Shown: piece after piece, positions 8,012-63,997 of the stretch
Numbering within the stretch: position 1 is the first letter of the stretch
How the letters are laid out: the number at the start of each line of letters is the position of its first letter
From: Acidobacteriaceae bacterium
Lineage (GTDB): Bacteria > Acidobacteriota > Terriglobia > Terriglobales > Acidobacteriaceae
Assembly (NCBI GenBank): GCA_003139995.1
Contig: PLIC01000085.1
Coordinates: forward strand, 3,739 to 67,738
Length of the DNA: 64,000 nt
Direction: 5' to 3'
Notes under the pieces: model-generated
What the model was told of the DNA's origin: nothing
The model's input: the letters and a program-made list of their open reading frames with translations, nothing else
Databases searched by the model: none
Translations under genes and position numbers: made by a program

Positions 8012-8081
8012 CAGTTCCCAGTTCTCGGTTCTCAGTCTCTAGTGGTTGTTTGATCAATACCATTCAGGTCGGAAGGCACGG

Positions 8082-8141
8082 CCCTCGGGGGCTAAAGCCC
8101 GCATTTTTCTTGGCCCTAAACGGCACGGCTGAAGCCGTGCC
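8082..8141 (+). repeat. REP-like element, family A, copy 3
   Basis: CCCTCGGGGGCTAAAGCCC plus GGCACGGCTGAAGCCGTGCC with a 40-nt offset, between the rnr start and the DinB gene end. Confidence 0.85.
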
Positions 8142-8220
8142 CTACCCAAACCCGATTTATGAAACCTGCCCTAAGTATTCAGTAGTCTTCAGTCTTTGAT
8201 CCAGTTACTGAGAACTAGAA

Positions 8221-8778
8221 TCAGCGCAAGTATTTCTCTTCGAGAATCTTTCGATGATGCAGTTCGTGTCCGGCGATGATGAAGGCTAGGGCGCGCACCG
8301 TCACCTCGTTCTTGCTGGCCACGCCGCGGCGGGTCCAGGCGGCCTCGTCTAGATTACGAAACAGCGAGATGGTGGCGCGGCGCACGGCGATGTAATCTTC
8401 GATCAGGTCCGCCAGCGGACGCCGCGCAAATGGGCCATTGCGGACGTAGTCGTCCTGCTCGAAGCCTTCGAGGGGAGTCGCGTCGCCGCGCGAAATGCGC
8501 AAGGCCCTGTAGCTCATGATGCGCTCAGTATCGCTGATGTGGCCAAGAACTTCCTTGAGGCTCCACTTCTCAGGCGCGTAGCGGAGGTCGCCGTCGGATT
8601 CGGTTCTTCCAGAGAGCAGCAGAAGCATCTGGCGGCGCTGGTCTTCTAAGGCGGCGAGCGCGGCAAGAACGTCGGTGCCCGGAACTAGAGAGATGTAGCG
8701 GTCGTAGTAGGGAGCGTATTCTCCGGGCTGGGGCCGGAGGGAGGCAGTCGCGGTCGAAGTCGTCACGGTTGAAGTCAT
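8221..8778 (-). CDS. DinB-family (metal-dependent four-helix bundle) protein
   Basis: DinB-like features: WSLKEVLGHISDTERI... and C-terminal AGHELHHRKILEEKY. ATG at 8778 is preceded by GAGGA. The ORF-track start at 8829 lacks an RBS. Confidence 0.7.
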   Translation of the reverse strand: MTSTVTTSTATASLRPQPGEYAPYYDRYISLVPGTDVLAALAALEDQRRQMLLLLSGRTESDGDLRYAPEKWSLKEVLGHISDTERIMSYRALRISRGDATPLEGFEQDDYVRNGPFARRPLADLIEDYIAVRRATISLFRNLDEAAWTRRGVASKNEVTVRALAFIIAGHELHHRKILEEKYLR

Positions 8779-49124: not shown

Positions 49125-49477
49125 GGGGGAATCCTTTCTGGGAGGGCGAGGTTTCGAGAAGAACGACCGATTGCATCTGAAAACGGGCCCAATCACGCGT
49201 GCAATTACTGTGCATTTCCGTGGGAGTATACACGAAAACAACACACAAGCAACGATGAAACTCCTGTAAATGAACTTCTGATTCTAAGCGCGGCTACGGA
49301 TGCTCGCACTGTGCAAAAATAAACTGCACTTGATGTGTTCTCGCTCGCATTTTTTTGCACATTACTTACTGTAGGGCATCGTTCGGACTGTCCGAGACTT
49401 GGTGACTCAGGCGTGGTGGCGGCTGCGGAGAAATTTCCTCTTTGCTCTACACCGGCCGAACGTCGCCCCTCGCTGAG

Positions 49478-50101
49478 CTACCTCGCGCGGCGAGTTGCAC
49501 GCGCCATCTCCCCCCGGAAGCTCAGGAACGCCTTCTGCCCGGCGAGTTTCGCCAGTTGTTCGCGCTCATTTTCCAGAGGCATGCCCGCACGCAGAAACTG
49601 TTTCCGAAGTTTTCCGATGTGCTCCACAAACGGTCCCCACTCCGGCGGGAATTGCCGCTCCAATTCCTTTCGCAGCCGTGCCGCCAAGGCAGGACTGTTT
49701 CCGCTTGTAGAGATCGCAATCTGCAGCGGCCCGCGACGCACCACGGCCGGATAAAAAAAGTCGCAGTGCTCGGGATCGTCCACTACATTGCAGAGCACGC
49801 GCCGGGCCCGGCAAGCGCGAAACACGGCGCCGTTGGATGCAGCGGAATCGGTGGCGGCGACCACCAGAAACGCGCCTCGCACATCGCGGGACAAAAATGC
49901 CCGGCTTCGCCATACGAGCTTGCCCGATCGCGCTTTCTCGCGAATCCAGGCGACGGCTTTCGGGGCGACGACAACGACCTCAGCCCCATGGCTCAGCAAG
50001 CCAGCCGCTTTCGCCGCCGCCACGCGCCCCGCGCCCACCACCAGGCATTTCCGGCCCTGCAGCCGGACCATGATGGGGAAAACGATGATAGGGAACGCCA
50101 T
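49478..50101 (-). CDS. sirC: Precorrin-2 dehydrogenase / sirohydrochlorin ferrochelatase (CysG N-terminal / SirC-Met8 type)
   Basis: FPIMVRLQGRKCLVVGAGRVAAAKAAGLLSHGAEVVVVAP...NVVDDPEHCDFFYPAVV. Divergent from dsrA. Confidence 0.8.
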   Translation of the reverse strand: MAFPIIVFPIMVRLQGRKCLVVGAGRVAAAKAAGLLSHGAEVVVVAPKAVAWIREKARSGKLVWRSRAFLSRDVRGAFLVVAATDSAASNGAVFRACRARRVLCNVVDDPEHCDFFYPAVVRRGPLQIAISTSGNSPALAARLRKELERQFPPEWGPFVEHIGKLRKQFLRAGMPLENEREQLAKLAGQKAFLSFRGEMARATRRAR

Positions 50102-50237
50102 GTAACCCCCGCATTTTCAATCGGGTCGGACCAGACCATGATACCCCAAACTGGGCACTCCGCACGCCATCTGCGGGGTCTCAGTTTTCATCCGCGGGTC
50201 ATTTTTCCGGCGATTCTTCGGCGCAGTCACCACGCCC

Positions 50238-50253
50238 TGTGATCGATGTCACA
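50238..50253. promoter_or_regulatory. Perfect CRP/FNR-family palindrome TGTGA-TCGATG-TCACA in the sirC/dsrA divergent region
   Basis: Read directly. It lies 116 nt upstream of the dsrA ATG. A -10-like TAGTAAT follows 19 nt downstream (50273-50279). Confidence 0.5.
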
Positions 50254-50368
50254 TACCGGCGACGGCTATTCCTAGTAATCTTATGGACAAGATGATGTTG
50301 TCCCCTCTTCGTCCCGTGGCCGCTTGCGACTCCAGGCCGATTCCCCCAAGAACCTAAGGAGATAGGTG

Positions 50369-51568
50369 ATGGCCAATGACAGCGGCGAGAAACCGGAAAC
50401 CAAGATGTTGGACGAACTGGAAAAAGGTCCATGGCCGAGCTTCGTGAAGGAGATCAAGTCGGCTGGCCAAACCAGCGCCAGCGCCCAGGATCTCCTTCGC
50501 CAGTTGGAGCTTTCCTACCAGGAGAAGAAAGGGCATTGGAAGCACGGCGGCTTAGTCGGCGTGCTCGGCTACGGCGGAGGCGTCATCGGGCGCTACAGCG
50601 ATGCCGGCGATCAGTTTCCCAAGGTCGCTCAGTTCCACACCCTACGCGTCAACCAGCCTGCGGGATGGTTCTACACCAGCGACGCGATTCGCACTCTCTG
50701 CGACATTTGGGAGCGCCACGGCTCCGGCCTCACTAACATGCACGGGTCCACCGGCGACCTCATTCTGCTGGGCACCGGCACGGCTGAACTGGAGCCCACA
50801 TTCCAAGAGCTGGCGCAGGCTGGGTTCGATCTGGGCGGCTCCGGATCCGCGTTTCGCACTCCTTCTTGCTGCGTCGGCATGGCCCGCTGCGAATGGGCGT
50901 GTTATGACGCGATGAAACTGTGTTACGACCTGACCATGGCGTACCAGGACGAAATGCATCGTCCACCCTTCCCTTACAAGTTCAAAGTCAAGTGCGCCGC
51001 CTGCCCGAACGATTGCGTGGCGGCCATTGCCCGCGCCGATCTTTCTATCATCGGCACCTGGAAGGACGAAATTCAGGTGGACGAGAGCGCCGTGAACGAG
51101 TACGCGTCCGCTGGCCTCAACCTCCAGAAGGACGTCTGCGATCTCTGCCCCAGCAAGTGCATGGCATGGGATGGCCACAAGCTCAGCATTGAAAACCACG
51201 AATGCGTGCGCTGCATGCACTGCATCAACGTCATGCCCAAAGCGCTGCGGCCCGGCAAAGAGCGCGGAGCGGTCATCATGATCGGAGGCAAGGCGCCCAT
51301 CATGCAAGGCGCTCTGCTTTCTTCCGTCCTCGTTCCTTTCGTGCCTGCGGAAGAACTCATGGACACTTTGAAGGAGTTGATCCGCCGCATCTGGGATTTC
51401 TGGGACGAATACGGCAACAATCGGGAGCGGGTTGGTGAACTGATCCAGCGCGTGGGGCTGCCCGTGTTCCTCGATGGTATTGGTCTCGACCCCGTTCCGG
51501 AAATGGTCTCCGCGCCCCGCGACAATCCTTACATTTACTTTCAGGTTGCGAAGGACGGTGAGAAATGA
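50369..51568 (+). CDS. dsrA: Dissimilatory sulfite reductase alpha subunit
   Basis: [19 protein letters not shown]-terminus. Sirohaem-[4Fe-4S] Cys cluster ([12 protein letters not shown] ... CAACPNDC) and ferredoxin insert ([12 protein letters not shown]). AAGGAG lies 7 nt before the ATG. Confidence 0.9.
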
Positions 51569-52647
51569 GCGCCACACCCCAACCTCGGCTCACCGACATC
51601 GGGCCGCCGCATTACGAAAAATATCTGCATCCTTTGATCAAGAAGAACTACGGCCAGTGGAAGTACCACGAGAATCTGGCCCCCGGAGTCTATTGCCATG
51701 TTGCGGAATCGGGTGACCGCATCTACACGGTGCGCGCGGGCACGCCGCGTCTGCTAAGTATCCACACGCTGCGGAAGTTTGCTGACTTGGCCGACAAATA
51801 TTCTGGCGGCTATCTACGCTTCACCAGCCGGAACAATCTCGAGTTTCTGCTCGACGATCCGGCCCGGATCGAGCCGCTGAAGCGGGAACTGATCGCCCTG
51901 GGATATCCGGTGGGCGGCACTAATAACGCCATCAGCAACATCGTCCATACCCAGGGATGGATCCATTGCCATTCCTCGGCAACCGACGCTTCGGGACTGG
52001 TCAAGTGCGTGATGGACGCTGTTTACGAACGCTTCACGCACGAGGACCTTCCGGCAAAATTGCGGATCGCGGTCGCCTGCTGCCTGAATATGTGTGGCGC
52101 GGTGCATTGTTCCGACATCGCCATCCTCGGCGTTCACCGCCTCCCCCCGAAAATCCAGCATGGCACGCTGCCCAAAGTATGCGAGGTGCCAACGCTGATC
52201 GCCGCCTGCCCGACCGGGGCGATTCGTCCGGCGATCGTGGACGGCAAGAATTCGGTCGCAGTGGTGGAGCAGCAGTGCATGTATTGCGGCAATTGCTACA
52301 CCGTATGCCCCGCCATGCCCATGAACGATGCGGAGAATGACGGTTTATCCATCTGGGTGGGCGGCAAGGTGAGCAATGCGCGGAGCGTGCCAAAGTTTTC
52401 CAAGCTGGCGATCCCGTTCCTCCCCAACCATCCTCCGCGCTGGCCCGAGGTGGTTGAGGCCGTGGTGAAGATTGTGAACGTTTATGCGAAACACGCGCGC
52501 AAATACGAACGGGTGGGCGAGTGGATCGAGCGCATCGGTTGGCCGCGCTTTTTCCAACTGACCGGGTTCGAGTTCACGCGTTATCACATTGACGACTTCA
52601 AACATGCGGCGCTGACCTACGCGCGGTCGGCGCACGTTCGCTATTGA
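51565..52647 (+). CDS. dsrB: Dissimilatory sulfite reductase beta subunit
   Basis: [27 protein letters not shown]...[10 protein letters not shown]...[16 protein letters not shown]...[16 protein letters not shown] overlap with dsrA. Confidence 0.9.
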
Positions 52648-52686: not shown

Positions 52687-54348
52687 ATGGGGCTGTTCAA
52701 GGAAGTCGAGAAGCCGGTGATTCGAAGCGTGGCGGCGGCTGCCAGTGAGATCAGCCCGCTGCGTCCTCGCTTCGCGCCCAAAGCGCCGCCGTGCGCCTCG
52801 GGCTGCCCCAACGGCACCGAAATTCGCGAGCTGCTAGTGATCGTCGCGCAAGCCAAAGACTACGGCTTGACGCATGAACAAGCTTTCGACCGCGTTTGGA
52901 AAAGAATCGTGGAGCGCAACCCATTCCCCGCAGTCACGGGCCGAATCTGTCCGCACCCTTGCGAAACTGCGTGTAACCGCAGCGCCAAGGATGGAGCGGT
53001 GGCGTTCAATGCGATCGAACGCATGATCGGAGATTTTGGGATTGCCAACAAGCTGAGGCTCTCGCCGCTGACGACTCAGCCCCGCGCAGAAAAAGTTGCG
53101 GTCATTGGCGCGGGCCCGGCGGGGTTGTCCTGCGCCTATCAACTGGTTCGGCGAGGATACGCGGTCGCTGTTTTCGAAGCCTTGAACGAGCCGGGAGGTA
53201 TGTTGCGTTACGGTATTCCGGGATTCCGCTTGCCGCGTGAAGTTCTCGACGCGGAGATCGGCCGCATTCTCGATCTCGGAGTCGAGCTGCAGTGCAATTG
53301 CGCCGTGGGCAAGGATATTTCCCTGGAGCAACTCCGCCAGGAATATGCAGCCGTATTCGCCGGCATTGGCGCACAAAAAGGGATCAAGTTGAATTTGGCG
53401 GGCGAGGATGCGCCGAACGTGATCAGCGGGATCGAATTCCTCAATCTGGTCAACCGCGGAGAAAAAATCGGCGTCGGAAGCAAAGTGATCGTGATCGGCG
53501 GAGGCGACACCGCCATTGACGCCGCCCGCGTCAGCAAGCGGCTCGGCGCCGAGGTCACCGTCCTCTATCGCCGCACGCGCGCCGAAATGCCGGCCATCAA
53601 GTCCGAGATCGAAGGCGCGCTCGAAGAAAGTGTGAAGATCGAATACTTGGCCGCGCCGCTCGAAATCCTGCGGCAGAACAGACGCGCCGTAGGCATGCGC
53701 TCGATTCGCATGCAGCTTGGCGAACCGGATTCCTCGGGCCGTCCGCGCCCCGTGCCTCAGCCCGGCAGCGAATTTGAAATGGAGGCGTCCTGCGTCATCG
53801 CGGCGATCAGCCAGGCGCCCGATTTCCAGGGTCTGGAGACTCTGCCCAACGGCGACGGCTGGATCAAAATTGACGATTGGGGCGGGACCGCCGTTGACGG
53901 AATCTTCGCCGGCGGCGACGGCGCTGGACTCGGTATCGCCGCTGTTGCCATTGCCCAGGGCCGGTTGGCGGCCCAGGCCATCGACGCGCGTTTTCAGGGA
54001 CGCAAGTTGGAAAAGCCGCCCGCGTTGCCTGCCATCCCGATCGAGAAGCTGAGGCTTGACTGGTATCCGGCGGCGCCGCGGCGCGAAGCGCAGCGGGTTT
54101 CGGTCACGGAGCGCGAACTCGGCACCGAGGTCGCGTTCGGTTTAACTGAAGCTGAAGTGCTCGAAGAGGCCAAGCGCTGCATGTCTTGCGGCATGTGCAT
54201 GGATTGTGAAGCCTGCTGGATGTACTGCAGCAACAACTGTTTTGTCAGGCTGCCGAAAGGCGAACATTGCAAGATCAGGCTGGAAGTCTGCAACGGGTGC
54301 AAGAAGTGCGCCGACGCATGTCCGAGCGGATATATCGAACTGAGTTGA
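52687..54348 (+). CDS. dsrL: DsrL-like NAD(P)H oxidoreductase (GltD-like flavoprotein with C-terminal 2x[4Fe-4S] ferredoxin domain)
   Basis: GRICPHPCETACNR; two dinucleotide folds (VAVIGAGPAGLSCAY, VIVIGGGDTAIDAA); C-terminal CMSCGMCMDCEACWMYC...CNGCKKCADACP. It sits between dsrB and dsrC. Confidence 0.8.
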   Translation: MGLFKEVEKPVIRSVAAAASEISPLRPRFAPKAPPCASGCPNGTEIRELLVIVAQAKDYGLTHEQAFDRVWKRIVERNPFPAVTGRICPHPCETACNRSAKDGAVAFNAIERMIGDFGIANKLRLSPLTTQPRAEKVAVIGAGPAGLSCAYQLVRRGYAVAVFEALNEPGGMLRYGIPGFRLPREVLDAEIGRILDLGVELQCNCAVGKDISLEQLRQEYAAVFAGIGAQKGIKLNLAGEDAPNVISGIEFLNLVNRGEKIGVGSKVIVIGGGDTAIDAARVSKRLGAEVTVLYRRTRAEMPAIKSEIEGALEESVKIEYLAAPLEILRQNRRAVGMRSIRMQLGEPDSSGRPRPVPQPGSEFEMEASCVIAAISQAPDFQGLETLPNGDGWIKIDDWGGTAVDGIFAGGDGAGLGIAAVAIAQGRLAAQAIDARFQGRKLEKPPALPAIPIEKLRLDWYPAAPRREAQRVSVTERELGTEVAFGLTEAEVLEEAKRCMSCGMCMDCEACWMYCSNNCFVRLPKGEHCKIRLEVCNGCKKCADACPSGYIELS

Positions 54349-54366: not shown

Positions 54367-54684
54367 GTGCCGCTATTCGAAGTCGAGGGAAGAAGTTACG
54401 AAGTGGATGAAGACGGCTTCTTGCAGGAGCCGGAACGCTGGAACCGGGAGGTGGCCAAGGACTTCGCTGCTACTGAGGCCATCGCCGATCTGACCGAGGA
54501 ACACTGGAAGATCATTCACTACATCCGCAATTACTACCTGGAGTTCGGGATCGCGCCCATGATTCGCAAGCTCTGCAAGGAAACCGGGCACAAACTGAAC
54601 GAGATCTACAAGCTGTTCCCATCCGGGCCGGCGAAGGGCGCGTGCAAGCTGGCGGGGCTGCCGAAGCCCACAGGCTGCGTGTAG
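54367..54684 (+). CDS. dsrC: DsrC (TusE/DsrC/DsvC family) with both conserved C-terminal cysteines
   Basis: MPLFEVEGRSYEVDEDGFL...EHWKIIHYIRNYY and C-terminal ..GACKLAGLPKPTGCV. GTG start after AAGGAG. Confidence 0.9.
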   Translation: MPLFEVEGRSYEVDEDGFLQEPERWNREVAKDFAATEAIADLTEEHWKIIHYIRNYYLEFGIAPMIRKLCKETGHKLNEIYKLFPSGPAKGACKLAGLPKPTGCV

Positions 54685-54691
54685 AAATCAA

Positions 54692-55165
54692 ATGGACGCG
54701 AACGAGGCCATCCTCGAACAGTGGGTCGTGCGGACGGCGGAATCCTACCCGCATCACGCGGCGGCTCTTCTGAGCAAAGAGCGGGATCCCTTTCGCAATC
54801 CGGTTGGCGATACGCTGCGCCAGAGCCTGGCGCTGCTGCTGCGCGAGTTATTCGCCGAGATGGATGCAACGGCAATCGATTCCGCCCTCGACCCCATCAT
54901 CCGGCTCCAAGCGATTCAAGGGTTCTCTTCCGACGACGCCGTGCGATTCGTATCTCTGTTGAAACCCATTCTCCGTGAACTGGCGCCGGAACGAAACTCT
55001 GCAGTCCTTGATCGTCGGATCGATGATGACAGGATCAATCGGCTCGCGGTGATGGCTGCAGACAAGTGCACACAATGCCGCGAGCAACTGGCTCGAATCC
55101 GGGCGAACGAAGTTCAGCGCGCGAACCATGTGCAACAACGTATCCGCGCGAGGCGGCCCGCATGA
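54692..55165 (+). CDS. dsrT: DsrT-like protein (RsbRD N-terminal-type domain)
   Basis: Located directly upstream of dsrMKJOP, as in sulfate reducers and Chlorobi. The pattern ILEQWVVRTAESYP...DPFRNPVGDTLRQSL is what I recall for this family. Confidence 0.55.
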   Translation: MDANEAILEQWVVRTAESYPHHAAALLSKERDPFRNPVGDTLRQSLALLLRELFAEMDATAIDSALDPIIRLQAIQGFSSDDAVRFVSLLKPILRELAPERNSAVLDRRIDDDRINRLAVMAADKCTQCREQLARIRANEVQRANHVQQRIRARRPA

Positions 55166-56175
55166 AAGCCCTCTCTCCGCTGCTGGCCGTTCTCGCGATT
55201 GTTGGGTTCGCCGTCGTAGGCGGGCACACGCATGCTGGCCTTGTTTTTCTGGCTGTGTTCGTTCCCTATGCGGCCTTCGCGGTTTTCCTAGTTGGCTTCT
55301 GTTACCGTGTGGCGCGCTGGGCGTGGATCCCTGTACCGTTCCGCATTCCCACCACTTGCGGCCAGCAAAAGTCGCTGCCCTGGATCAAACCTGCATCGCT
55401 GGACAACCCCAGCACCGGCTGGGGCGCATTCCGCCGTATGGCGCTGGAAATCCTTCTGTTCCGTTCCCTGTTCCGCAACAATCGCGCGCGGCTGCACGAT
55501 CGGCGGCTTGTACTGGGCGAAGACAGATATCTATGGCTGGGCGCTCTTGCGTTTCATTGGTCGTTGCTGGTGATTCTGCTTCGGCACCTGCGTCTGTTTG
55601 TCCAGCCCGTTCCAGTTTTCGTAAGTGTGCTCTCGCGACTGGACGGCGCTTTTCAAGTGGGAACTCCTGCACTTTATATCTCTGACGTGGTCATTCTGGG
55701 CACGCTGGTGTACCTGACCGCACGGCGATTTCGCAACCCGCTGGCTCGCTACCTATCAATGCCGATCGATTACCTGGCCTTGTTTCTTCTGCTGGGAATC
55801 GTGACTTCCGGCCTGCTCATGCGCTTCGTAGTCCGAGTAGACGTGGCTGCGATCAAGCAGTTTGCGCTCGGATTGGCCGTCTTCCGCCCGGTAGTTACAA
55901 GCGCCATAACTCCGATATTTCTCGTCCACTTACTTTTGGTCAGCGCCCTGGCTGCATATTTCCCGTTCAGCAAGCTCATGCACATGGGCGGTGTCTTTCT
56001 CAGCCCCACGCGTAATCTGGCCAACAACAATCGCAGCAAGCGCCACGTCAACCCCTGGAATCATCCAGTGAAAACCCACTCCTATGCGGAGTGGGAGGAC
56101 GAGTTCCGAGACAAACTGAAAACCGCGAACCTTCCGCTTGAGGCTGAGGATGCCCGACAAATTACTGGCCATTGA
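55162..56175 (+). CDS. dsrM: DsrM (NarI-like dihaem b membrane subunit)
   Basis: Polytopic membrane protein with conserved His in TM helices. ATGA overlap with dsrT. Its position is typical for dsrM. Confidence 0.8.
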   Translation: MKALSPLLAVLAIVGFAVVGGHTHAGLVFLAVFVPYAAFAVFLVGFCYRVARWAWIPVPFRIPTTCGQQKSLPWIKPASLDNPSTGWGAFRRMALEILLFRSLFRNNRARLHDRRLVLGEDRYLWLGALAFHWSLLVILLRHLRLFVQPVPVFVSVLSRLDGAFQVGTPALYISDVVILGTLVYLTARRFRNPLARYLSMPIDYLALFLLLGIVTSGLLMRFVVRVDVAAIKQFALGLAVFRPVVTSAITPIFLVHLLLVSALAAYFPFSKLMHMGGVFLSPTRNLANNNRSKRHVNPWNHPVKTHSYAEWEDEFRDKLKTANLPLEAEDARQITGH

Positions 56176-57748
56176 ACAGAAACGTCCCGAAGGCGATTGG
56201 CGCGATGCTAAGGTCGAGTTTCGCAAAGGGACGATCTGTTACAGCGCGGCGCCGAAAAACATCACCTATCTCAGTCTGCCCAACCCCCGCGAGTGGCAGC
56301 CTTTCGACGCGGACTGGAAACTTCCGCCCAACTGGAAAGAAATCATTCTCAAAGGCATGAAAGAGCGATTGCGGAAGTACCGCTCTTTTCGCCTATTCAT
56401 GGAAATCTGCGTACGCTGCGGCGCCTGCGCCGACAAGTGTCATTTCTATGTCGGCTCCGGCGATCCCAAGAACATGCCAGTGCTGCGCGCCGAGTTGATG
56501 CGCTCGGTTTATCGCCGCTATTTCACCCTCACGGGGCGGCTTTTTAGGGCGCTCGTGGGCGCGCGCGAGCTGACTGAAGACGTCATCAAGGAATGGTTCT
56601 ACTACTTTTATCAGTGCACCGAGTGCCGGCGCTGTTCGGTTTTTTGTCCTTATGGGATCGACACGGCCGAGATCACTATGATGGGCCGCGAGTTACTCGA
56701 CCTGATCGGCTGCAACATCAATTGGGTCATGGAGCCTGCCGCAAACTGTTTCCGCACCGGCAATCATCTTGGAGTGCAGCCGCACGCTTTTCAGGACAGC
56801 ATTCAATTCGCCGCCGATGAAGCAAAGGAAATCACGGGCCTGCCCATCGAAGTTCCCATCAACCGCAAAGGCGCGGAGATTCTTTTCGTCATGCCCTCGG
56901 CCGATTATTTTGGCACCCCGCATTACTACACACTGCTCGGCTATCTGATGCTGTTTCACGAAATCGGGCTTGACTACACAGTTAGTGCCTTTGCTTCGGA
57001 GGGCGGCAACTTCGGCCTCTTTTCATCGCACGAACTAATGAAGCGGCTCAATGCCAAGATCTACGAAGAAGCGAAGCGGCTGCGCGTCAAATGGATTCTG
57101 GGCGGCGAGTGCGGCCACATGTGGCGCGTGTTCCATCAGTATATGGACACGATGAACGGGCCGGCCGATTTTCTGGAGCCGCCGGTTTCGCCCATTACCG
57201 GGACGCATTTCGAGAACGCCCGCTCCACGCGCGCCGTCCACATTTGCGAGTTCACCGCCGACCTGATTCATCACGGCAAACTTCGGCTCGACCCTCGCCG
57301 CAACGATCGTTGGAACGTTACTTACCACGACTCCTGTAATCCTTCGCGCGCCATGGGGTTGCTGGAAGAGCCGCGCTACATCCTGAAAAACGCTTGCCGG
57401 AATTTCCACGAGATGCCGGAGAACACGATCCGCGAACAAACCTTCTGCTGCGGCAGCGGCGCCGGACTCGGCACGGATGAGAACCTGGAGATGCGCCTGC
57501 GCGGCGGCTTTCCGCGCGCCAACGCCGTCAAGCACGTAAGGGAAAAACATGGCGTGAACTTGCTGGCTTGCATTTGCGCCATCGACAAGGCAACGCTGCC
57601 CACGCTGATGGAGTACTGGGTCCCTGGCGTCGAGGTCGCCGGCGTGCACGAGTTACTGGGGAATGCGCTGGTGATGACCGGAGAAAAAGAACGAACCACT
57701 GACTTGCGCGGCGAACCACTGGTACGGGAGGAGGCTACGCGTGAGTGA
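56150..57748 (+). CDS. dsrK: DsrK (HdrD-like Fe-S/CCG-domain catalytic subunit)
   Basis: CVRCGACADKCH, CTECRRCSVFCPYGID and the CCG motif region FCCGSGAG. Confidence 0.85.
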   Translation: MPDKLLAIEQKRPEGDWRDAKVEFRKGTICYSAAPKNITYLSLPNPREWQPFDADWKLPPNWKEIILKGMKERLRKYRSFRLFMEICVRCGACADKCHFYVGSGDPKNMPVLRAELMRSVYRRYFTLTGRLFRALVGARELTEDVIKEWFYYFYQCTECRRCSVFCPYGIDTAEITMMGRELLDLIGCNINWVMEPAANCFRTGNHLGVQPHAFQDSIQFAADEAKEITGLPIEVPINRKGAEILFVMPSADYFGTPHYYTLLGYLMLFHEIGLDYTVSAFASEGGNFGLFSSHELMKRLNAKIYEEAKRLRVKWILGGECGHMWRVFHQYMDTMNGPADFLEPPVSPITGTHFENARSTRAVHICEFTADLIHHGKLRLDPRRNDRWNVTYHDSCNPSRAMGLLEEPRYILKNACRNFHEMPENTIREQTFCCGSGAGLGTDENLEMRLRGGFPRANAVKHVREKHGVNLLACICAIDKATLPTLMEYWVPGVEVAGVHELLGNALVMTGEKERTTDLRGEPLVREEATRE

Positions 57749-58145
57749 TCGTCCACTTATTCTCGCGGGCCTGACTCTTTTCGTCGGACTGGTAACGACG
57801 CCGATCTGGCACGGCGCTCTCGATAGGAAGGCGGCCTTGACCGCTCCGCCGATCCAGCTTCCTGCGCAGGAAAAGCAGTGCGTAGCACCCGCGAGTTACA
57901 TGCGCAGTTCGCACATGCAGTTGCTGGAACATTGGAGAGATGAGGCGGCGCGCGATGGGCGGAGGCAGTTCGTCGCATTCAACGGGAAGATTTACGACAA
58001 GAATCCCACCCGCACCTGCGTCACGCAATGCCACACCGACCGCAAGGAATTTTGCGAACGGTGCCATGACTATGCCGGTGTTTCCGATCCAGATTGTTGG
58101 AATTGCCACAACGATTCCCAGCGAACTTCGAGGAGTGCGCCATGA
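57741..58145 (+). CDS. dsrJ: DsrJ (trihaem cytochrome c, membrane anchored)
   Basis: N-terminal TM helix and three haem motifs: CVTQCH (CX3CH), CERCH, CWNCH. GTG start overlaps dsrK by 8 nt. Confidence 0.8.
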   Translation: MSDRPLILAGLTLFVGLVTTPIWHGALDRKAALTAPPIQLPAQEKQCVAPASYMRSSHMQLLEHWRDEAARDGRRQFVAFNGKIYDKNPTRTCVTQCHTDRKEFCERCHDYAGVSDPDCWNCHNDSQRTSRSAP

Positions 58146-58921
58146 AGATTACGCGAAAAGATTTTCTTCGGATTTCGGGCCTGGGCTTGCTGGCTGTGGC
58201 AGGAAGGAAAGCTGTCCGCGCAGTGGCCGAACGAACGTCCGAGCGAGCGTCCGAGCAAACGTCCGCGCCGTTCGCGAAACAGGTCCGCTGGGGCATGGCG
58301 ATTGATCTGCAGAAATGCCGTCAAAAAGACGGCTGCGACCGCTGCATCAAGGCGTGCCACTCGACGCACAACGTGCCGCAATTCTCCGACCGCGCGCACG
58401 AGGTCAAGTGGATATGGAAGGAGCCGTTCAAGAATGTATTTCCCGCCGCGCAGACCGGCTACACACGCGAGTTTTTCGGAAACCTTCCCGTGTTGCTGGT
58501 GTGCAACCACTGCGACGATCCTCCCTGCCAGGACGTTTGCCCGGTCAAGGCAACCTGGAAACGAGAGGACGGCGTGGTCACCATCGACTTTCATCGCTGC
58601 ATCGGCTGCCGCTATTGCATGGCTGCCTGCCCGTATGGTGCGCGCAGCTTTAACTGGCTGGATCCCCGGCCAGCCATCGCAACTGTGAACCTGGATTTCC
58701 CGACCCGCACCAAAGGTGTGGTGGAGAAGTGCAATTTCTGCGAAGAACGGCTGGCGAAAGGGCTGGGACCGGCTTGCGCCGAGAGCTGCGAGGAGAAAGC
58801 CATCGTGTTCGGCGATCTCGAAAAGCCAGACTCCGAGGTGCGCCGACTGCTGCGATCGCGCTTTGCGGTGCAGCGCCAACCGGAATTGGGCACTGGCCCT
58901 GCTGTGTATTACATCGTCTGA
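58142..58921 (+). CDS. dsrO: DsrO (periplasmic 4Fe-4S ferredoxin-type subunit, Tat-like signal)
   Basis: MKITRKDFLRISGLGLLAVAG, then CIGCRYCMAACPYGA and CNFCEERL..G..PACAESC. ATGA overlap with dsrJ. Confidence 0.85.
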   Translation: MKITRKDFLRISGLGLLAVAGRKAVRAVAERTSERASEQTSAPFAKQVRWGMAIDLQKCRQKDGCDRCIKACHSTHNVPQFSDRAHEVKWIWKEPFKNVFPAAQTGYTREFFGNLPVLLVCNHCDDPPCQDVCPVKATWKREDGVVTIDFHRCIGCRYCMAACPYGARSFNWLDPRPAIATVNLDFPTRTKGVVEKCNFCEERLAKGLGPACAESCEEKAIVFGDLEKPDSEVRRLLRSRFAVQRQPELGTGPAVYYIV

Positions 58922-58929
58922 GTGTGCTT

Positions 58930-60087
58930 ATGTTCATGTTTGAAAAAGCGCTCACGGGAGGCCGCAAATACTGGCTCTGGATAACCTCACTCTTCTTGTT
59001 AGTTCTGGCAGGTTCTCTTTGTTATGTCTTACAACTGACGCACGGGCTGGCCGTCACCGGACTCAGCCGCGATGTAAGTTGGGGCCTCTACATTGCGCAA
59101 TTCACCTTCTTTGTGGGTGTCGCCGCTTCCGCGGTCATGGTAGTTCTGCCCTACTATCTGCACGATTACCAACAATTTGGCCGCATCACCATCCTTGGCG
59201 AACTTCTGGCGGTCACGGCGGTTACGATGTGCATTCTTTTCATCTTCGTCGACTTGGGCCAGCCTACGCGGATTGTCAACATCGTGCTTCATCCCCAGCC
59301 GAAGTCGGTGATGTTTTGGGACATGATTGCGCTCGGCGGTTATCTACTGATGAACGCGGCGATCGCCGTGGTCACACTGACCGCGCAACGCGAACAAGTA
59401 CCGGCTCCCGGCTGGATCAAGCCCGTGATTATCCTCTCGATTCCATGGGCAATCGGCATTCATACGGTCACCGCATTTCTCTATAGCGGATTGCCCGGCC
59501 GATCTTACTGGCTGACGGCGATTCTGGCGCCGCGTTTCCTGGCTTCGGCTTTTGCTTCGGGGCCGGCCTTGTTGATCCTTCTGTGTCTGGCCTTGCGGAA
59601 GTTGTCCGGCTTTGATGCGGGGCGGGAAGCCATCCAGAAGCTCGCGGTCATCGTGACCTACGCCCTCGCCATCAATATGTTTCTCATCCTGGCAGAGGTC
59701 TTTACCGCTTTCTACAGCGAGATTCCGGCGCACGAAGAGCACTTCGAGTATCTCTTCATCGGCCTCAACGGCGATCGGCACCTGGTGCTCTGGATGTGGC
59801 TCTCGACGCTGCTTTCCGGGGTTGCATTGGCATTGCTGCTGGTTCCAAAGTGGCGAAACAACATCCGTCTGCTGGTGGTGGCATGCGTGTGTGTTTTCGT
59901 TTCGATCTGGCTGGACAAGGGACTCGGACTGATTGTTGGTGGCATGGCGCCTTCACCACTCGGAGCGGTCACGCGGTATGTTCCCACGCTACCCGAATCG
60001 GCTATCGTTCTCGGGATTTGGGCCAGCGGCGCCTTGATGATCACGGTTTTCTACAAGATCACGCTCTCGGTTTGGGAGGATAACTAA
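58930..60087 (+). CDS. dsrP: DsrP (NrfD/PsrC-type integral membrane quinone-interacting subunit)
   Basis: 385-aa polytopic membrane protein following dsrO. ATG 58930 (MFMFEKALTGGRKYWLW). Confidence 0.8.
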   Translation: MFMFEKALTGGRKYWLWITSLFLLVLAGSLCYVLQLTHGLAVTGLSRDVSWGLYIAQFTFFVGVAASAVMVVLPYYLHDYQQFGRITILGELLAVTAVTMCILFIFVDLGQPTRIVNIVLHPQPKSVMFWDMIALGGYLLMNAAIAVVTLTAQREQVPAPGWIKPVIILSIPWAIGIHTVTAFLYSGLPGRSYWLTAILAPRFLASAFASGPALLILLCLALRKLSGFDAGREAIQKLAVIVTYALAINMFLILAEVFTAFYSEIPAHEEHFEYLFIGLNGDRHLVLWMWLSTLLSGVALALLLVPKWRNNIRLLVVACVCVFVSIWLDKGLGLIVGGMAPSPLGAVTRYVPTLPESAIVLGIWASGALMITVFYKITLSVWEDN

Positions 60088-60175: not shown

Positions 60176-61072
60176 ATGACGAACATTGGCAAAGTATATT
60201 TGGTGGGCGCAGGACCGGGACATCCTGATCTTCTTACGATCCGGGCGGCCGAAATTCTCAAGACCGCTGAAGTGATCGTGTACGACCGGCTGATCCAGGA
60301 TGAGGTCCTGGCGCTGGCCAAGCCTTCTGCCGAAAAGATCTTCATGGGCAAGCCGTTGGGCAGGCATGCTTCGCGACAGAACGAGATCCACGATCTGCTG
60401 GTCCGCAAGGCCCGCGAAGGCAGAATGGTGGTGCGCCTCAAGGGCGGCGATCCGTTTTTGTTCGGTCGCGGCGGCGAGGAAGCCGAGTATCTTGCGGAGC
60501 ATGGGGTTACCTTCGAAGTAGTTCCGGGAGTTTCTTCCTGCCTGTCCGCGCCGCTGAGCGCCGGAATCGCAGTTACTCACCGCGACCGGGCCTCGTCCGT
60601 CGCTATTGTTACCGGCCATCAGGCGGCGGAGCATGAGGATCGGGTGGATTGGCAAGCGCTGAGCAAAGTCGACACTCTGGTCGTTCTCATGGGCATCCAC
60701 AATATCGACCACATCACCAGGAAGTTGATGGCGGCCGGCCTCGCTCCCGATACTCCAGCCGCGATCGTTCAGATGGCCTTCTGGGAAAGTGAGCGAGTTA
60801 TCGCTTCAACGCTGGGCACGATTACAGAAGACGCTCGTCGCGCAGCTATCGAGCCTCCGGCGACTCTCGTGATTGGGGAGGCGGTGCGCCTGCGCGAGAA
60901 ATTGAAACATCATCAACAACACATCGGACAGCACTCCGGCCGCGATCCCTTGATTCACGTTGTTCCTATCCCTGACCGGTCCTCGGGCGACACGCTAAGT
61001 CTAGACACGCTAAGTCTGGAAGAGGAGAGTTGCGTGGTGCCTGCATCGTGCGAGAAAGAGGTTCTCCAATGA
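60176..61072 (+). CDS. cobA: Uroporphyrinogen-III C-methyltransferase (SUMT) with ~45-aa C-terminal extension
   Basis: VYLVGAGPGHPDLLTIRAAEILKTAEVIVYDRL...VVRLKGGDPFLFGRGGEE...VPGVSS. The tail contains the direct repeat DTLSLDTLSL. Confidence 0.85.
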   Translation: MTNIGKVYLVGAGPGHPDLLTIRAAEILKTAEVIVYDRLIQDEVLALAKPSAEKIFMGKPLGRHASRQNEIHDLLVRKAREGRMVVRLKGGDPFLFGRGGEEAEYLAEHGVTFEVVPGVSSCLSAPLSAGIAVTHRDRASSVAIVTGHQAAEHEDRVDWQALSKVDTLVVLMGIHNIDHITRKLMAAGLAPDTPAAIVQMAFWESERVIASTLGTITEDARRAAIEPPATLVIGEAVRLREKLKHHQQHIGQHSGRDPLIHVVPIPDRSSGDTLSLDTLSLEEESCVVPASCEKEVLQ

Positions 61073-61323
61073 CGGATACGACATCGGTCCCTATCGAGAT
61101 TCTGGCGGAAGAAATGTACCAGCTGGTTGCGGACTGCGCCGGGAAGAAGAACTTGAAACCCGGCGATCTGACTAAAGAGATGATCGCCAAACACGGCCCA
61201 GCTTGCAGCAAAGACGACTGCAAGAAGGCCCTGCGAATCTTGATCGACTCAAGCCGCTGCGTCTACAGCTATCTCGGAGGCACTTACATTCAACTTCCGC
61301 CTAAGCCTGGCAGTGAAATATGA
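61069..61323 (+). CDS. dsrD: DsrD-like small winged-helix protein
   Basis: 84 aa. KKNLKPGDLTKEMI...DCKKALRILIDSSRCVYSYLGGTYIQLPP parallels the ..EVKKILTALVNDEVLEYWSSGSTTMYGLK region I recall from Desulfovibrio DsrD. ATGA overlaps on both sides. Confidence 0.5.
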   Translation: MTDTTSVPIEILAEEMYQLVADCAGKKNLKPGDLTKEMIAKHGPACSKDDCKKALRILIDSSRCVYSYLGGTYIQLPPKPGSEI

Positions 61324-62744
61324 CGGATTCTCGGCCCATGCCGCGCCTGCTGATTGGCGGTATGTCCGGCGGTTCGGGCAAGACACTGGTTTCGCTCGCG
61401 CTGCTGCTGGCCCTGCGCCGGGCCGGATTCCAGGTCCGCGCATTCAAGAAGGGTCCCGACTATATCGACGCTGCTTGGCTAAGTTGGGCAGCATCTTACC
61501 CCGCTCGCAATCTCGACACTTACTTGATGGGCCGAGACACCGTTCGCTCGTCGTTTGTGCGTGCTGGGATCACGGATGGCGTCAACCTCATCGAAGGCAA
61601 TCGGGGAATATTCGACGGATTCGACGCCGCTGGCACGCACAGTAGTGCCGCCCTCAGCCACTGCCTCGCCGCGTCAGTGGTGCTCGTGATCAACGTCGCC
61701 AAAGTCACGCGCACCGCAGCGGCTTTTGTCGCAGGATGCCGGGCACTTGATCGGGAGCTTCCGATTCGCGGCATCATTCTGAACAACGTGAATGGCCAGC
61801 GGCATGAGGAGGTCTTGCGTGCGGCGATTGAGTCTGCATGTGCGATCCCTATAGTTGGCACAATTCGTAAGGCCGCGGTCAACCCGCTGCCCGAGCGCTA
61901 TCTCGGATTGGTTCCTCCGCAAGAACACGCCGGAACGGCGCAAATCCAGGAGAATTTATTGAAACTGGCGGACGGGTTCGATTTAGACGCCATCGTCTCA
62001 ATCGCGCGGAGTGCGCCTTCGCTGGAGACCGATCCCACGGAGGTTGCGGTATCAGCCGTGAAGGACATCAAGGTTGGCTATCTGCGCGACTCGGCGTTTA
62101 GTTTCTATTACCCGGAAAATTTGGAGCAGTTGGAGCATGGGGGTGCCGAACCCATCCCAGTTTCCGCGCTTCAGAGCAGCGCTCTGCCAGAAGGGCTATG
62201 CGCGTTATACATCGGAGGCGGCTTTCCAGAAAAACACGCGGAAGTGCTGTCGTCGAACCGGAGTTTCCTGGAGTCGGTCCGGGAAGCAGCGCTCGGAGGT
62301 CTGCCAATTTACGCCGAATGCGGAGGTCTAATGCTGCTGGCCCAAACGCTGCGCTGGGAGGGCAGAACGTATCCGATGGCCGGAGTTTTCCCATTCGATG
62401 TGGAAGGCTTCAACACGCCACAAGGCCACGGTTACAGCGAGTTGCGCGTCGACCGGCCGAACCCGTTTTTTCCTGCTGGGCTCGTTCTTCGCGGCCATGA
62501 GTTCCATTACTCACGCATTTTGCTTGGGGATGAACCGGTTCCGACCGCTTGCGCAGTAATTCGCGGCGTGGGATGCTTTCAGAAACGCGACCTTGTTATC
62601 ACGAGAAATGTAATGGCAGGTTATACCCACTTACATGCCCTGGCCACTCCCGAATGGGCGAAAGGCTTTCTGGATGCGGCGCGCCGCTTCGAGCCTCGTG
62701 CCGCGCACCGAAACATTTCACATACTGTTGAAGCGATGGGCTAA
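61320..62744 (+). CDS. dsrN: DsrN (cobyrinic acid a,c-diamide synthase family; sirohaem amidase)
   Basis: PRLLIGGMSGGSGKTLVSLALLLALRRAGFQVRAFKKGPDYID, plus a C-terminal glutamine amidotransferase part (YAECGGLMLL...GHEFHYS). Confidence 0.8.
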   Translation: MTDSRPMPRLLIGGMSGGSGKTLVSLALLLALRRAGFQVRAFKKGPDYIDAAWLSWAASYPARNLDTYLMGRDTVRSSFVRAGITDGVNLIEGNRGIFDGFDAAGTHSSAALSHCLAASVVLVINVAKVTRTAAAFVAGCRALDRELPIRGIILNNVNGQRHEEVLRAAIESACAIPIVGTIRKAAVNPLPERYLGLVPPQEHAGTAQIQENLLKLADGFDLDAIVSIARSAPSLETDPTEVAVSAVKDIKVGYLRDSAFSFYYPENLEQLEHGGAEPIPVSALQSSALPEGLCALYIGGGFPEKHAEVLSSNRSFLESVREAALGGLPIYAECGGLMLLAQTLRWEGRTYPMAGVFPFDVEGFNTPQGHGYSELRVDRPNPFFPAGLVLRGHEFHYSRILLGDEPVPTACAVIRGVGCFQKRDLVITRNVMAGYTHLHALATPEWAKGFLDAARRFEPRAAHRNISHTVEAMG

Positions 62745-62758
62745 GCTGGTTCGCCGCG

Positions 62759-63997
62759 CTACGCCGTCATCCCGATGGGTTGTCGAGTCGTAGTCAGCAC
62801 TAACTCGCGCTCCGGCTTCCGAACGCGCTCGCGCGCCCAGTTGGAGATTTCGGAGACGGCATGGATCGCGGCGGCCACTTCCGCCTCGGTATTGAATGCG
62901 CCCACCGCGAAACGCACGCCGCCGTGTGTTTCCACAGTGCCCAATTGCGTGTGCACGAGCGGCGCGCAATGCAGCCCGGTGCGGGTCGCGATGTTATGGT
63001 CCACGTCAAGCATGATTCCGACATCGCCCGGATCGGCGCCTTCTATGTTCATCAAGACAGTCGAGAGGTGGTTCTCGAGTTGGTCGCAACAGTACAAGCG
63101 CACGCCATCGATCTTGCGCAAGCCTTCCACCAACTGTCTGGCGAGCTTCATCTCGTGGGCGTACACCTTTTCGATTCCGTTTTCGTCAAGCCAGTCCTGG
63201 CCCGCCCAAAGGGCCGCCACTCCCACCATGTTCGGAGTGCCGAACTCGAGGCGCCACGGATATTCCTCCAGATGATAGGGCTCGACCGAGCGCACTCCGG
63301 TGCCGCCGCTGCGTACCTGTGCGATTTCAACATGCTTACGGATACAAAGACCGCCGATGCCCATGCTGCCCATCAGCGCCTTGTGCCCTGTGAACGCGAC
63401 CACATCAATATTCATTTCTTTCATGTTGATCGGGATCACGCCTGCGGTTTGCGCCGTGTCTACGAGGAAGATTATGCCGTGCTCCCGGCAAAGACGCCCC
63501 ATTTCGCGAAGGGGCTGCACGGTGCCAATGACGTTTGAGCCGTGATTAACAATCAGTACTTTCGTGTTCGGACGAATGGCCCGCTTGACGTCGCCGGGTT
63601 CGATGAATCCCGAGGAGTTGAAAGGGAGATAGGTCGCCTCCGCTCCACAATCGCGAACCAGGTGGTTGACCGGCCGGATCACGGAGTTATGTTCCAGGTT
63701 GGTCGTGATCACGTGGTCGCCCTTGCCGATCAGCCCCGGAATCACCAGGTTCAGCGCATCCGTGACGTTGTAGCTGAAGACGAGCCGCTCCGGCGTATCT
63801 TCGTCGCCGCCAAAAAACTTGGTCAAACGCTTGCGCAGGTTCGTCAGCAAGGAACCCGCTTCAATCGCCAGGTCGTAACCGCTTCGGCCGGGGTTGACGC
63901 CATGCGTGCGGTAGAACTGATCCATGAACTTGTAAACACTCTCCGGCTTGGGCCAAACGGTCGCCGCATTATCAAAATAGATCAAGCGTTTTTCCAT
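62759..63997 (-). CDS. Class-V aminotransferase-fold cysteine desulfurase-like enzyme
   Basis: IYFDNAATVWP...FTGHKALMGSMGIGGLCI (PLP Lys context)...RTGLHCAP. Convergent with dsrN, 14 nt apart. Confidence 0.75.
   Translation of the reverse strand: MEKRLIYFDNAATVWPKPESVYKFMDQFYRTHGVNPGRSGYDLAIEAGSLLTNLRKRLTKFFGGDEDTPERLVFSYNVTDALNLVIPGLIGKGDHVITTNLEHNSVIRPVNHLVRDCGAEATYLPFNSSGFIEPGDVKRAIRPNTKVLIVNHGSNVIGTVQPLREMGRLCREHGIIFLVDTAQTAGVIPINMKEMNIDVVAFTGHKALMGSMGIGGLCIRKHVEIAQVRSGGTGVRSVEPYHLEEYPWRLEFGTPNMVGVAALWAGQDWLDENGIEKVYAHEMKLARQLVEGLRKIDGVRLYCCDQLENHLSTVLMNIEGADPGDVGIMLDVDHNIATRTGLHCAPLVHTQLGTVETHGGVRFAVGAFNTEAEVAAAIHAVSEISNWARERVRKPERELVLTTTRQPIGMTA

Follow-up and report, generated by a model that had tools for sequence, protein, structure and literature searches.

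Clusters for dissimilatory sulfite reduction (dsr) in which a dsrL-dsrC duo follows dsrAB and dsrD is paired with dsrN have been described from metagenome-assembled genomes (MAGs) of peatland Acidobacteria, including MAGs equipped for sulfite only (Hausmann, 2018, ISME J, PMC6018796), and the enzyme is of the reductive type in every member of the Acidobacteriota so far known to contain dsrAB (Dyksma and Pester, 2023). DsrL occurs in two types: DsrL-1 is confined to sulfur oxidizers and lacks a YRR motif, its subtype 1A having an extended linker and an inserted segment in the NAD(P) domain, and DsrL-2 has the YRR motif, is specific for NADP(H), and is the sole type found with reductive DsrAB (Löffler, 2020, PMC7596348). 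The name DsrL-2C has been given to the subgroup found together with reductive DsrAB and DsrD (Diao, 2023, PMC10591310), DsrD itself being an allosteric activator of DsrAB (Ferreira, 2022, PMC8794893). Here, a dsr cluster at 50.4-62.7 kb of a 64-kb stretch of Acidobacteriaceae DNA (contig PLIC01000085.1 of assembly GCA_003139995.1; the whole stretch is called the window) is compared with these systems. A first-pass annotation had placed dsrL (52687-54348) between dsrB and dsrC in a cluster with dsrT, dsrMKJOP, and a candidate dsrD, and had seen in this a mix of oxidative and reductive markers. The comparison indicates that the window very probably carries the standard Dsr island of dsrAB-carrying Terriglobia, in which such "mixed markers" are normal for the lineage and no unusual pathway is involved.

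DsrL type and DsrAB clade

The window DsrL is 553 amino acids (aa) long and matches Fer4_20 (residues 33-121), Pyr_redox_2 (137-426), and Pyr_redox (267-317), as well as NF009410 ("NAD(P)-binding protein", 573 bits), and its residues 498-554 match the ferredoxin-like PDB chains 5c4i_B and 6cfw_N. The C-terminus contains one classical motif, C535xxC538xxC541xxxC545P; residues 498-518 are also rich in cysteine. The domain order, an N-terminal Fe-S region followed by an FAD fold, an NAD(P) fold, and a C-terminal 2x[4Fe-4S] ferredoxin domain, is the one that had been described at first pass, and that description was accurate.

A YRR motif is present in the NAD(P)-binding domain, where it is read in 'VTVLYRRTRAEMPA'; the stretch quoted for the DsrL-2 criterion is 'EVTVLYRRTRAEMPA'. 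The NAD(P) domain and linker comprise 140 and 91 residues, compared with 168 and 142 in two DsrL-1A-type references (L084 and L085), in which the aligned YRR column reads SLF. These references were obtained from a search of the genomes behind two Chromatiaceae loci; the cluster has the canonical order dsrA-B-E-F-H-C-M-K-L-J-O-P-N, a DsrL of 657 aa, and, in L084, dsrEFH open reading frames (ORFs) that score 96-108 bits by Pfam. A second, 1033-aa "DsrL" match in locus L066 was rejected as a DsrL-1 anchor on account of its score (236 bits) and wrong context. It should be noted that YRR was also found in non-dsr outgroup sequences; since these relatives carry it too, the motif excludes DsrL-1 but alone does not define DsrL-2.

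A total of 80 loci encoding DsrL relatives were fetched from named genomes and annotated by homology to the window genes. In the DsrL tree, 70 dsr-linked sequences form one clade (support 99), apart from 8 non-dsr GltD-like relatives. The window DsrL nests in a 59-row clade (support 95) and, within it, in a 9-row Terriglobia group (support 100); a DsrD-like gene is present in 48 of the 52 loci of the 59-row clade that include dsrB, with dsrAB-dsrD-(dsrN)-dsrL as the gene order of the clade. The sister clade comprises 11 loci with the order dsrA-dsrB-dsrL, none of which has a DsrD-like gene. These include Desulforhopalus sp. IMCC35007 and Nitrospirae RBG_19FT_COMBO_42_15, both of which have been named as carrying DsrL-2 with an oxidative rDsrA (Löffler, 2020). 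In a second DsrL tree, the DsrL-1A-type references sit on a long branch away from the clade of the window. Together, the YRR motif, the short NAD(P) domain and linker, and the separation in the trees place the window protein, as far as its sequence tells, in DsrL-2 and not in DsrL-1A. Moreover, a single dsrAB outside the oxidative clade (see below) and a DsrD-family gene in the same cluster match the description of the "2C" group of Diao (2023). The YRR motif further suggests that the enzyme would be specific for NADPH.

The sulfite reductase itself points the same way. A concatenated DsrAB tree of 52 loci resolves an oxidative clade of 9 rows (support 100, branch length 0.79), which consists of the same loci that lack the dsrD-like gene; among its members are the anchors that Löffler (2020) had named as rDsrA. 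The window DsrAB falls outside this clade, in a 9-row Terriglobia clade (support 100), as sister to the DsrAB of L010, an Acidobacteriaceae MAG whose cluster has an identical gene order, and the DsrAB and DsrL trees show the same split. In the PDB, which holds no oxidative enzyme for comparison, the window DsrA is best matched by the reductive ones from A. fulgidus and Desulfovibrio. From its placement in the tree, the window DsrAB is most likely of the reductive bacterial type.

In genome surveys, dsrL, dsrD, dsrT, and dsrEFH serve to tell producers of sulfide from consumers, and the first-pass annotation, following that usage, had treated dsrL as an oxidizer marker in conflict with dsrD and dsrT. 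This usage is outdated: the window DsrL is of the YRR type and belongs to the dsrD-associated clade, and the mix of markers is ordinary because DsrL-2 normally accompanies reductive sulfite reductases. The practical rule that follows from this case is to type DsrL (1 versus 2) and DsrAB before a cluster is called "mixed".

Several DsrL variants were encountered among the fetched loci. A Chromatiaceae MAG (G202) has two dsr clusters, one with the order dsrB-dsrL-dsrC-dsrM-dsrK and a YRR-containing DsrL of 624 aa (L066), the other the canonical dsrABEFHCMK-L-JOPN with a DsrL of 657 aa lacking YRR (L084), so that both DsrL types occur within one sulfur oxidizer. YRR-type DsrL of Gammaproteobacteria and Magnetococcales (L053, L055, L057, L059, L066, L070, and L071) have an NAD(P) domain of 193 instead of 140 residues, owing to an acidic insertion of ~53 residues that occupies the site of the DsrL-1A insertion yet differs from it. 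The dsrD-associated clade also takes in DsrL-like proteins of SAR324/Lambdaproteobacteria (L062, L067, and L068), whose YRR column reads CRE and whose genes lack a dsrAB within 10 kb. Finally, the DsrL of Myxococcales (L073 and L074), encoded after dsrAB-dsrD, have a gap at the YRR column and a long branch (1.05).

The 84-residue protein encoded after cobA

The candidate dsrD is an ORF of 84 aa at 61069-61323. It is a real, conserved gene: a total of 499 database relatives, all labelled "hypothetical protein", come from Terriglobales, Terracidiphilus, and other Acidobacteriota, and a profile search of 1.8 billion representatives returned 159 relatives. A hidden Markov model (HMM) of the family identified 49 ORFs in the 80 DsrL loci, 46 of which begin no more than about 150 nt from the dsrB stop codon, in the canonical dsrD slot; the remainder include one ORF fused to DsrB (L028) and one displaced ORF (L010). 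The dsrB-adjacent loci span more than ten phyla, and the gene is found in none of the 11 oxidative-type loci. Among 201 genomes sampled from the class of the window, the family occurs in all 10 that have dsrA and in 1 of the 191 that do not, with the qualification that related genomes are not independent, although the 10 dsrA-positive genomes span five families. The lone match in a dsrA-negative genome (G046 C9:8114-8329, minus strand) is weak (E 1.2e-13), and that genome is 86% complete. It is this context, namely the position of the orthologues next to dsrB, the co-occurrence with dsrA, and the absence from oxidative loci, that identifies the ORF, with high confidence, as a divergent DsrD.

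The fused ORF in L028, a Deltaproteobacteria MAG, spans 6977-8374 on the plus strand and encodes 465 aa, apparently DsrB with a C-terminal DsrD-like domain; the locus has no separate dsrB ORF.

Structure and profile comparisons are compatible with this identity. The AlphaFold2 (AF2) model of the protein (pLDDT 84, pTM 0.72) has helices at residues 9-23, 31-45, and 48-60 and strands at 65-67 and 73-75, a topology of three helices and a beta-hairpin (H-H-H-E-E). Foldseek comparison with the PDB returned winged-helix domains only (Fur, MarR, Z-alpha of ADAR1, and MCM), none of them significant or specific. A DsrD profile of Desulfovibrionaceae was built from the D. vulgaris sequence, which had been confirmed against PDB 1UCR. 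In hhalign, a profile of the wider family aligned weakly with Desulfovibrio DsrD (E 2e-4, probability 47%) over 62 colinear columns from end to end, with the SY-GGSY wing of the family set on the canonical YWSSGSTT; a narrow family profile gave nothing in the same comparison. Of 47 wider-family members, 12 touch PF08679 (best E 5e-6), compared with 13 for MCM4_WHD and 13 for TBPIP, and an HMM made solely from Desulfovibrio DsrD found just 1 of the 49 family ORFs, at 15.9 bits. Taken alone, such sequence evidence for a DsrD identity is suggestive at best.

In the window, the gene lies ~8.4 kb downstream of the dsrB slot, after cobA and paired with dsrN. The closest relative, L010, has the same displaced position, as do three more genomes of the same family, judged only by a dsrA-to-ORF spacing of 9-11.5 kb, and another genus of the family retains the order dsrABD. 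The displacement of dsrD with dsrN to a position after cobA is thus a lineage trait. The organization had been called atypical at first pass; dsrD is indeed removed from dsrB, but this is shared with L010 and with the clusters of Hausmann (2018).

Canonical DsrD of Desulfobacterota has no cysteines (Ferreira, 2022). Members of the close acidobacterial family all have C23, C51, and C64, and nearly all have C46; in a cross-phylum set of 50 aligned sequences, cysteine occurs at positions 46, 51, and 64 in 30, 33, and 37 sequences, respectively (60-74%), and C23 is present in 5 of the 50. A CxxxxC pair is located at the turn between helices 2 and 3. It is conceivable, as a long shot, that the protein is a thiol- or redox-sensitive activator of DsrAB that would switch sulfite reduction off under oxygen in facultatively aerobic bacteria; on the same reading, its relocation to a cobA-dsrD-dsrN unit might tie it to the maturation of sirohaem.

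Gene layout, proposed pathway, and substrate

Thirteen co-directional genes, nearly all identified by curated models, occupy 50.4-62.7 kb on the plus strand in the order dsrA-B-L-C-T-M-K-J-O-P-cobA-(84-aa ORF)-dsrN, preceded by sirC:

49478-50101, minus strand: sirC/dsrV-like precorrin-2 dehydrogenase, divergent from dsrA, for sirohaem supply (Pfam NAD_binding_7 115 bits, Sirohm_synth_M 56 bits)
50366-51568, plus strand: dsrA, dissimilatory sulfite reductase alpha subunit (TIGR02064 574 bits, cut-off 393)
51565-52647, plus strand: dsrB, beta subunit (TIGR02066 513 bits, cut-off 341.5)
52687-54348, plus strand: dsrL of type 2 (YRR), Fe-S flavoprotein, putative NADPH:DsrAB oxidoreductase (domains, YRR motif, trees)
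54367-54684, plus strand: dsrC (PF04358 136 bits; both C-terminal cysteines, C93 and C104)
54692-55165, plus strand: dsrT, RsbRD_N-domain protein directly before dsrM (PF14361, E 9.4e-15)
55162-56175, plus strand: dsrM (NF038037 461 bits; probable ATG at 55162 in an ATGA overlap with the dsrT stop; maximal ORF from 55066)
56150-57748, plus strand: dsrK (NF045796 730 bits; probable ATG at 56150; maximal ORF from 56138)
57741-58145, plus strand: dsrJ (NF038038 134 bits)
58142-58921, plus strand: dsrO (NF045797 298 bits; probable ATG at 58142 in an ATGA overlap with the dsrJ stop)
58924-60087, plus strand: dsrP (NF045798 452 bits; start at 58924-58936; maximal ORF from 58729, model match from its residue 70)
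60176-61072, plus strand: cobA/dsrWa-like uroporphyrinogen-III C-methyltransferase (PF00590 184 bits, NF004790 305 bits)
61069-61323, plus strand: probable divergent DsrD-family winged-helix protein, 84 aa, paired with dsrN (fold, weak profile similarity, orthologue position, dsrA co-occurrence)
61320-62744, plus strand: dsrN, CobB-like a,c-diamide synthase, putative sirohaem amidase (PF07685, PF01656; NF002204 388 bits)

The products of dsrM, dsrK, dsrJ, dsrO, and dsrP all score above their NCBIfam equivalog cut-offs, and the first-pass names of dsrL, dsrT, and dsrMKJOP are correct. The translation of dsrC ends in GACKLAGLPKPTGCV, with a C-terminal arm GAC(93)KLAGLPKPTGC(104)V, i.e., C-x10-C-V; both functional cysteines are therefore present. 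A DsrT homologue is encoded directly 5' of dsrM in 35 fetched loci, in keeping with the description of DsrT as an RsbRD paralogue syntenic with dsrMK(JOP) (PMC8477390), and a dsrN homologue lies 3' of dsrD or dsrL in most fetched loci. An ORF upstream of dsrA on the plus strand (49442-50242) was discarded: it has no family match, the true gene in this region being sirC on the opposite strand. At the other end, a cysteine desulfurase family protein (62759-63997, minus strand; TIGR01977, 412 bits) is encoded convergently to dsrN and may be connected with the supply of Fe-S or sulfur.

Gene content, protein types, and synteny were observed, and the roles proposed here draw on the published biochemistry of homologues. 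By analogy with these, the reductive-type DsrAB and DsrC would reduce sulfite, and DsrMKJOP would recycle the DsrC trisulfide against the quinone pool. The adjoining DsrL-2, given its YRR motif, may feed electrons from NADPH into DsrAB (Löffler, 2020); the direct coupling of NAD(P)H to DsrAB that had been considered at first pass agrees with this published biochemistry. The winged-helix protein of 84 aa would be the DsrD of non-Desulfobacterota phyla and would, as an activator, raise DsrAB activity (Ferreira, 2022). SirC, CobA, and DsrN are predicted to provide sirohaem synthesis and amidation.

The assembly (Terriglobia, 5.49 Mb, 313 contigs, 92.8% complete) contains one copy of dsrAB, with a sole dsrA in the genome. 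The first-pass report that dsrEFH is absent holds at both scales: these genes are not in the 64-kb window, and a dsrE-dsrF-dsrH operon was not found in the assembly, where DsrH (PF04077) has zero matches and the only DsrE-family (PF02635) ORF, of 142 aa, is a lone one on another contig, far from the dsr cluster (C10:15367-15714, minus strand). The sole sat homologue (C54:10438-11577, minus strand) lies inside an unusually long open frame of 618 aa, which is read as a putative fused, assimilatory-type gene, and aprA and aprB were not found in the assembly. The lack of aprAB and the nature of the sole sat ORF therefore suggest that the substrate is likely sulfite, e.g., from organosulfonates or thiosulfate, and not sulfate.

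Rival readings and relation to described systems

Several points weigh against the interpretation of the window as an ordinary reductive Dsr island with its own DsrD. The support for the 59-row DsrL clade is 95 in one quick tree and 90 in the other. The typing of DsrL by motif and phylogeny, which had been proposed at first pass, yields a YRR protein set apart from two DsrL-1A-type sequences, in trees that contain neither a DsrL-1B reference nor the DsrL of D. amilsii; similarly, the DsrAB tree was built without a canonical sulfate-reducer sequence. The failure to find aprA and aprB was judged from an assembly that is 92.8% complete. The growth mode of organisms with DsrL-2 cannot be assigned from sequence alone (Löffler, 2020), and the direction of the pathway in this organism, likewise, cannot be read from sequence. 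The 84-aa ORF has no match to the Pfam DsrD family PF08679 even at E<=10, no match in NCBIfam at E<=1, and no sequence match to the DsrD crystal sequence in the PDB, and the best Foldseek hit to its model (E 8.6e-3) is generic winged-helix, with 1UCR outside the top 50.

The first-pass annotation had named the ORF dsrD and had held that failure against the DsrD HMM would count against the name. The ORF does fail it: searches of Pfam, NCBIfam, PDB sequences, and PDB profiles gave only ribosomal-protein matches at chance level, and a PF08679 search of the whole genome found nothing real. However, the context of its orthologues supports a divergent DsrD, and ten dsrB-adjacent orthologues also score at most 17.6 bits against PF08679, with none reaching the cut-off of 24.2. 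The failure is thus attributed to the narrow Pfam model, which does not cover this branch. PF08679 and NCBIfam miss the DsrD of Acidobacteriota, Ignavibacteria, Gemmatimonadota, Zixibacteria, and others; these proteins are therefore labelled "hypothetical protein", and automated pipelines that depend on such models will score dsrD as absent.

A different account, in which this small protein is an ordinary winged-helix DNA-binding protein that regulates the sirohaem/dsrN genes and does not act as a DsrD-type activator of DsrAB, is improbable. It would fit the empty searches for DsrD in Pfam, NCBIfam, and PDB sequences, the Foldseek matches to Fur, MarR, Z-alpha, and MCM domains, family contacts with MCM4_WHD and TBPIP that equal or exceed those with DsrD (13, 13, and 12), and the four cysteines and lack of YWSSGSTT that set the protein apart from Desulfobacterota DsrD. 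It would not account for a family that stands directly 3' of dsrB in 46 of 49 loci from over ten phyla, with a DsrB fusion in L028, that tracks dsrA through the genomes of the class (10/10 versus 1/191), and that is missing from all 11 oxidative-type loci; nor would it explain the end-to-end colinear hhalign alignment of SY-GGSY on YWSSGSTT, and Hausmann (2018) aligned the acidobacterial proteins with D. vulgaris DsrD. A comparable doubt about dsrL, that the DsrL-like protein is an ordinary GltD/NfnB-type oxidoreductase present in the cluster by chance, is effectively refuted. The best curated matches are generic (NF009410 and GltD/NfnB-like PDB chains), and YRR is shared with the non-dsr outgroup, but the gene follows dsrB by 37 nt and precedes dsrC by 18 nt, about 60 loci have the same protein beside dsrAB, and a further ferredoxin domain, as described for DsrL, is present at the C-terminus. 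The grouping with ordinary GltD/NfnB enzymes that the first-pass annotation had considered as a possible outcome did not appear in the tree, in which the dsr-linked sequences stand as a clade of their own, apart from non-dsr relatives (support 99).

The same genes could also operate in reverse or in disproportionation, with DsrAB oxidizing DsrC-bound sulfur to sulfite and DsrL-2 passing the electrons to NADP+. Hausmann (2018) and Löffler (2020) both left such a mode open; it has been put forward for some organisms whose gene set is of the reductive type, DsrL-2 enzymes work in both directions in vitro, and two green sulfur bacteria oxidize sulfur using DsrL-2 (Löffler, 2020). For the organism studied here it is nonetheless unlikely: the DsrAB does not belong to the oxidative clade, the cluster carries a DsrD-family gene when no dsrD is known in oxidizers with rDsrAB (Ferreira, 2022), neither dsrEFH nor dsrH was found in the assembly, and no aprAB was found that would convert sulfite to sulfate. 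In addition, dsrAB transcription in a related acidobacterial MAG was almost confined to anoxic, sulfate-reducing conditions (Dyksma and Pester, 2023). A reductive island, the preferred interpretation, leaves the current understanding of the pathway unchanged, and the residual interest of the locus is minor, lying in the DsrD annotation gap and the conserved cysteines.

Among described proteins, the DsrL-2/DsrL-2C group with that of Desulfurella amilsii (PMC7596348, PMC10591310) shares with the window DsrL the YRR motif, the short NAD(P) domain and linker, and a length of about 550-560 aa; both are encoded next to a DsrAB that does not fall in the oxidative clade, in dsrD-carrying genomes, the NADPH specificity of the window enzyme being deduced from the motif. 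DsrL-1A of the Allochromatium vinosum type is of the same family and domain order, but the references of this type (L084 and L085) are encoded after dsrK in dsrABEFHCMKLJOPN, have SLF in place of YRR, and are longer by 28 residues in the NAD(P) domain and by 51 in the linker. NfnB and GltD small-subunit-like enzymes, the best PDB sequence matches, share the Fe-S, FAD, and NADPH core and YRR, but have no dsr context, their non-dsr relatives lying outside the dsr-linked clade. Like the DsrD of D. vulgaris (1UCR) and A. fulgidus, the 84-aa protein is about 80 aa long with three helices and a beta-hairpin wing, has a lysine-rich stretch after helix 1 and a glycine-containing wing turn, and belongs to a family strictly tied to dsrAB outside the oxidative clade. 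It differs from D. vulgaris DsrD in the lack of a significant direct sequence match and in having SYLGGTYI for YWSSGSTT, in its four conserved cysteines where Desulfobacterota DsrD has none, and in the position of its gene after cobA and not after dsrB.

At the level of the whole cluster, the database relatives of the window are named Terriglobales, Terracidiphilus, Bryobacterales, and Acidobacteriaceae, with L010 as the closest fetched locus. The nearest described systems are the MAGs SbA1-7 of Hausmann (2018), from the same phylum, where the small acidobacterial proteins were already named DsrD. These MAGs have the same gene set as the window, namely dsrAB, dsrL-dsrC, dsrT-MKJOP, dsrD-dsrN, and DsrV/DsrWa-like genes, without dsrEFH, and there is no difference in kind, the likeness being one of published description and not of sequence alignment. 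Several of them lack sat, aprBA, and qmo and were read as sulfite reducers, and the genome studied here resembles these "sulfite-only" MAGs in lacking aprAB. The arrangement, reported as a surprise in 2018 and explained in 2020-2023, is thus already known, and the window is another instance of it.

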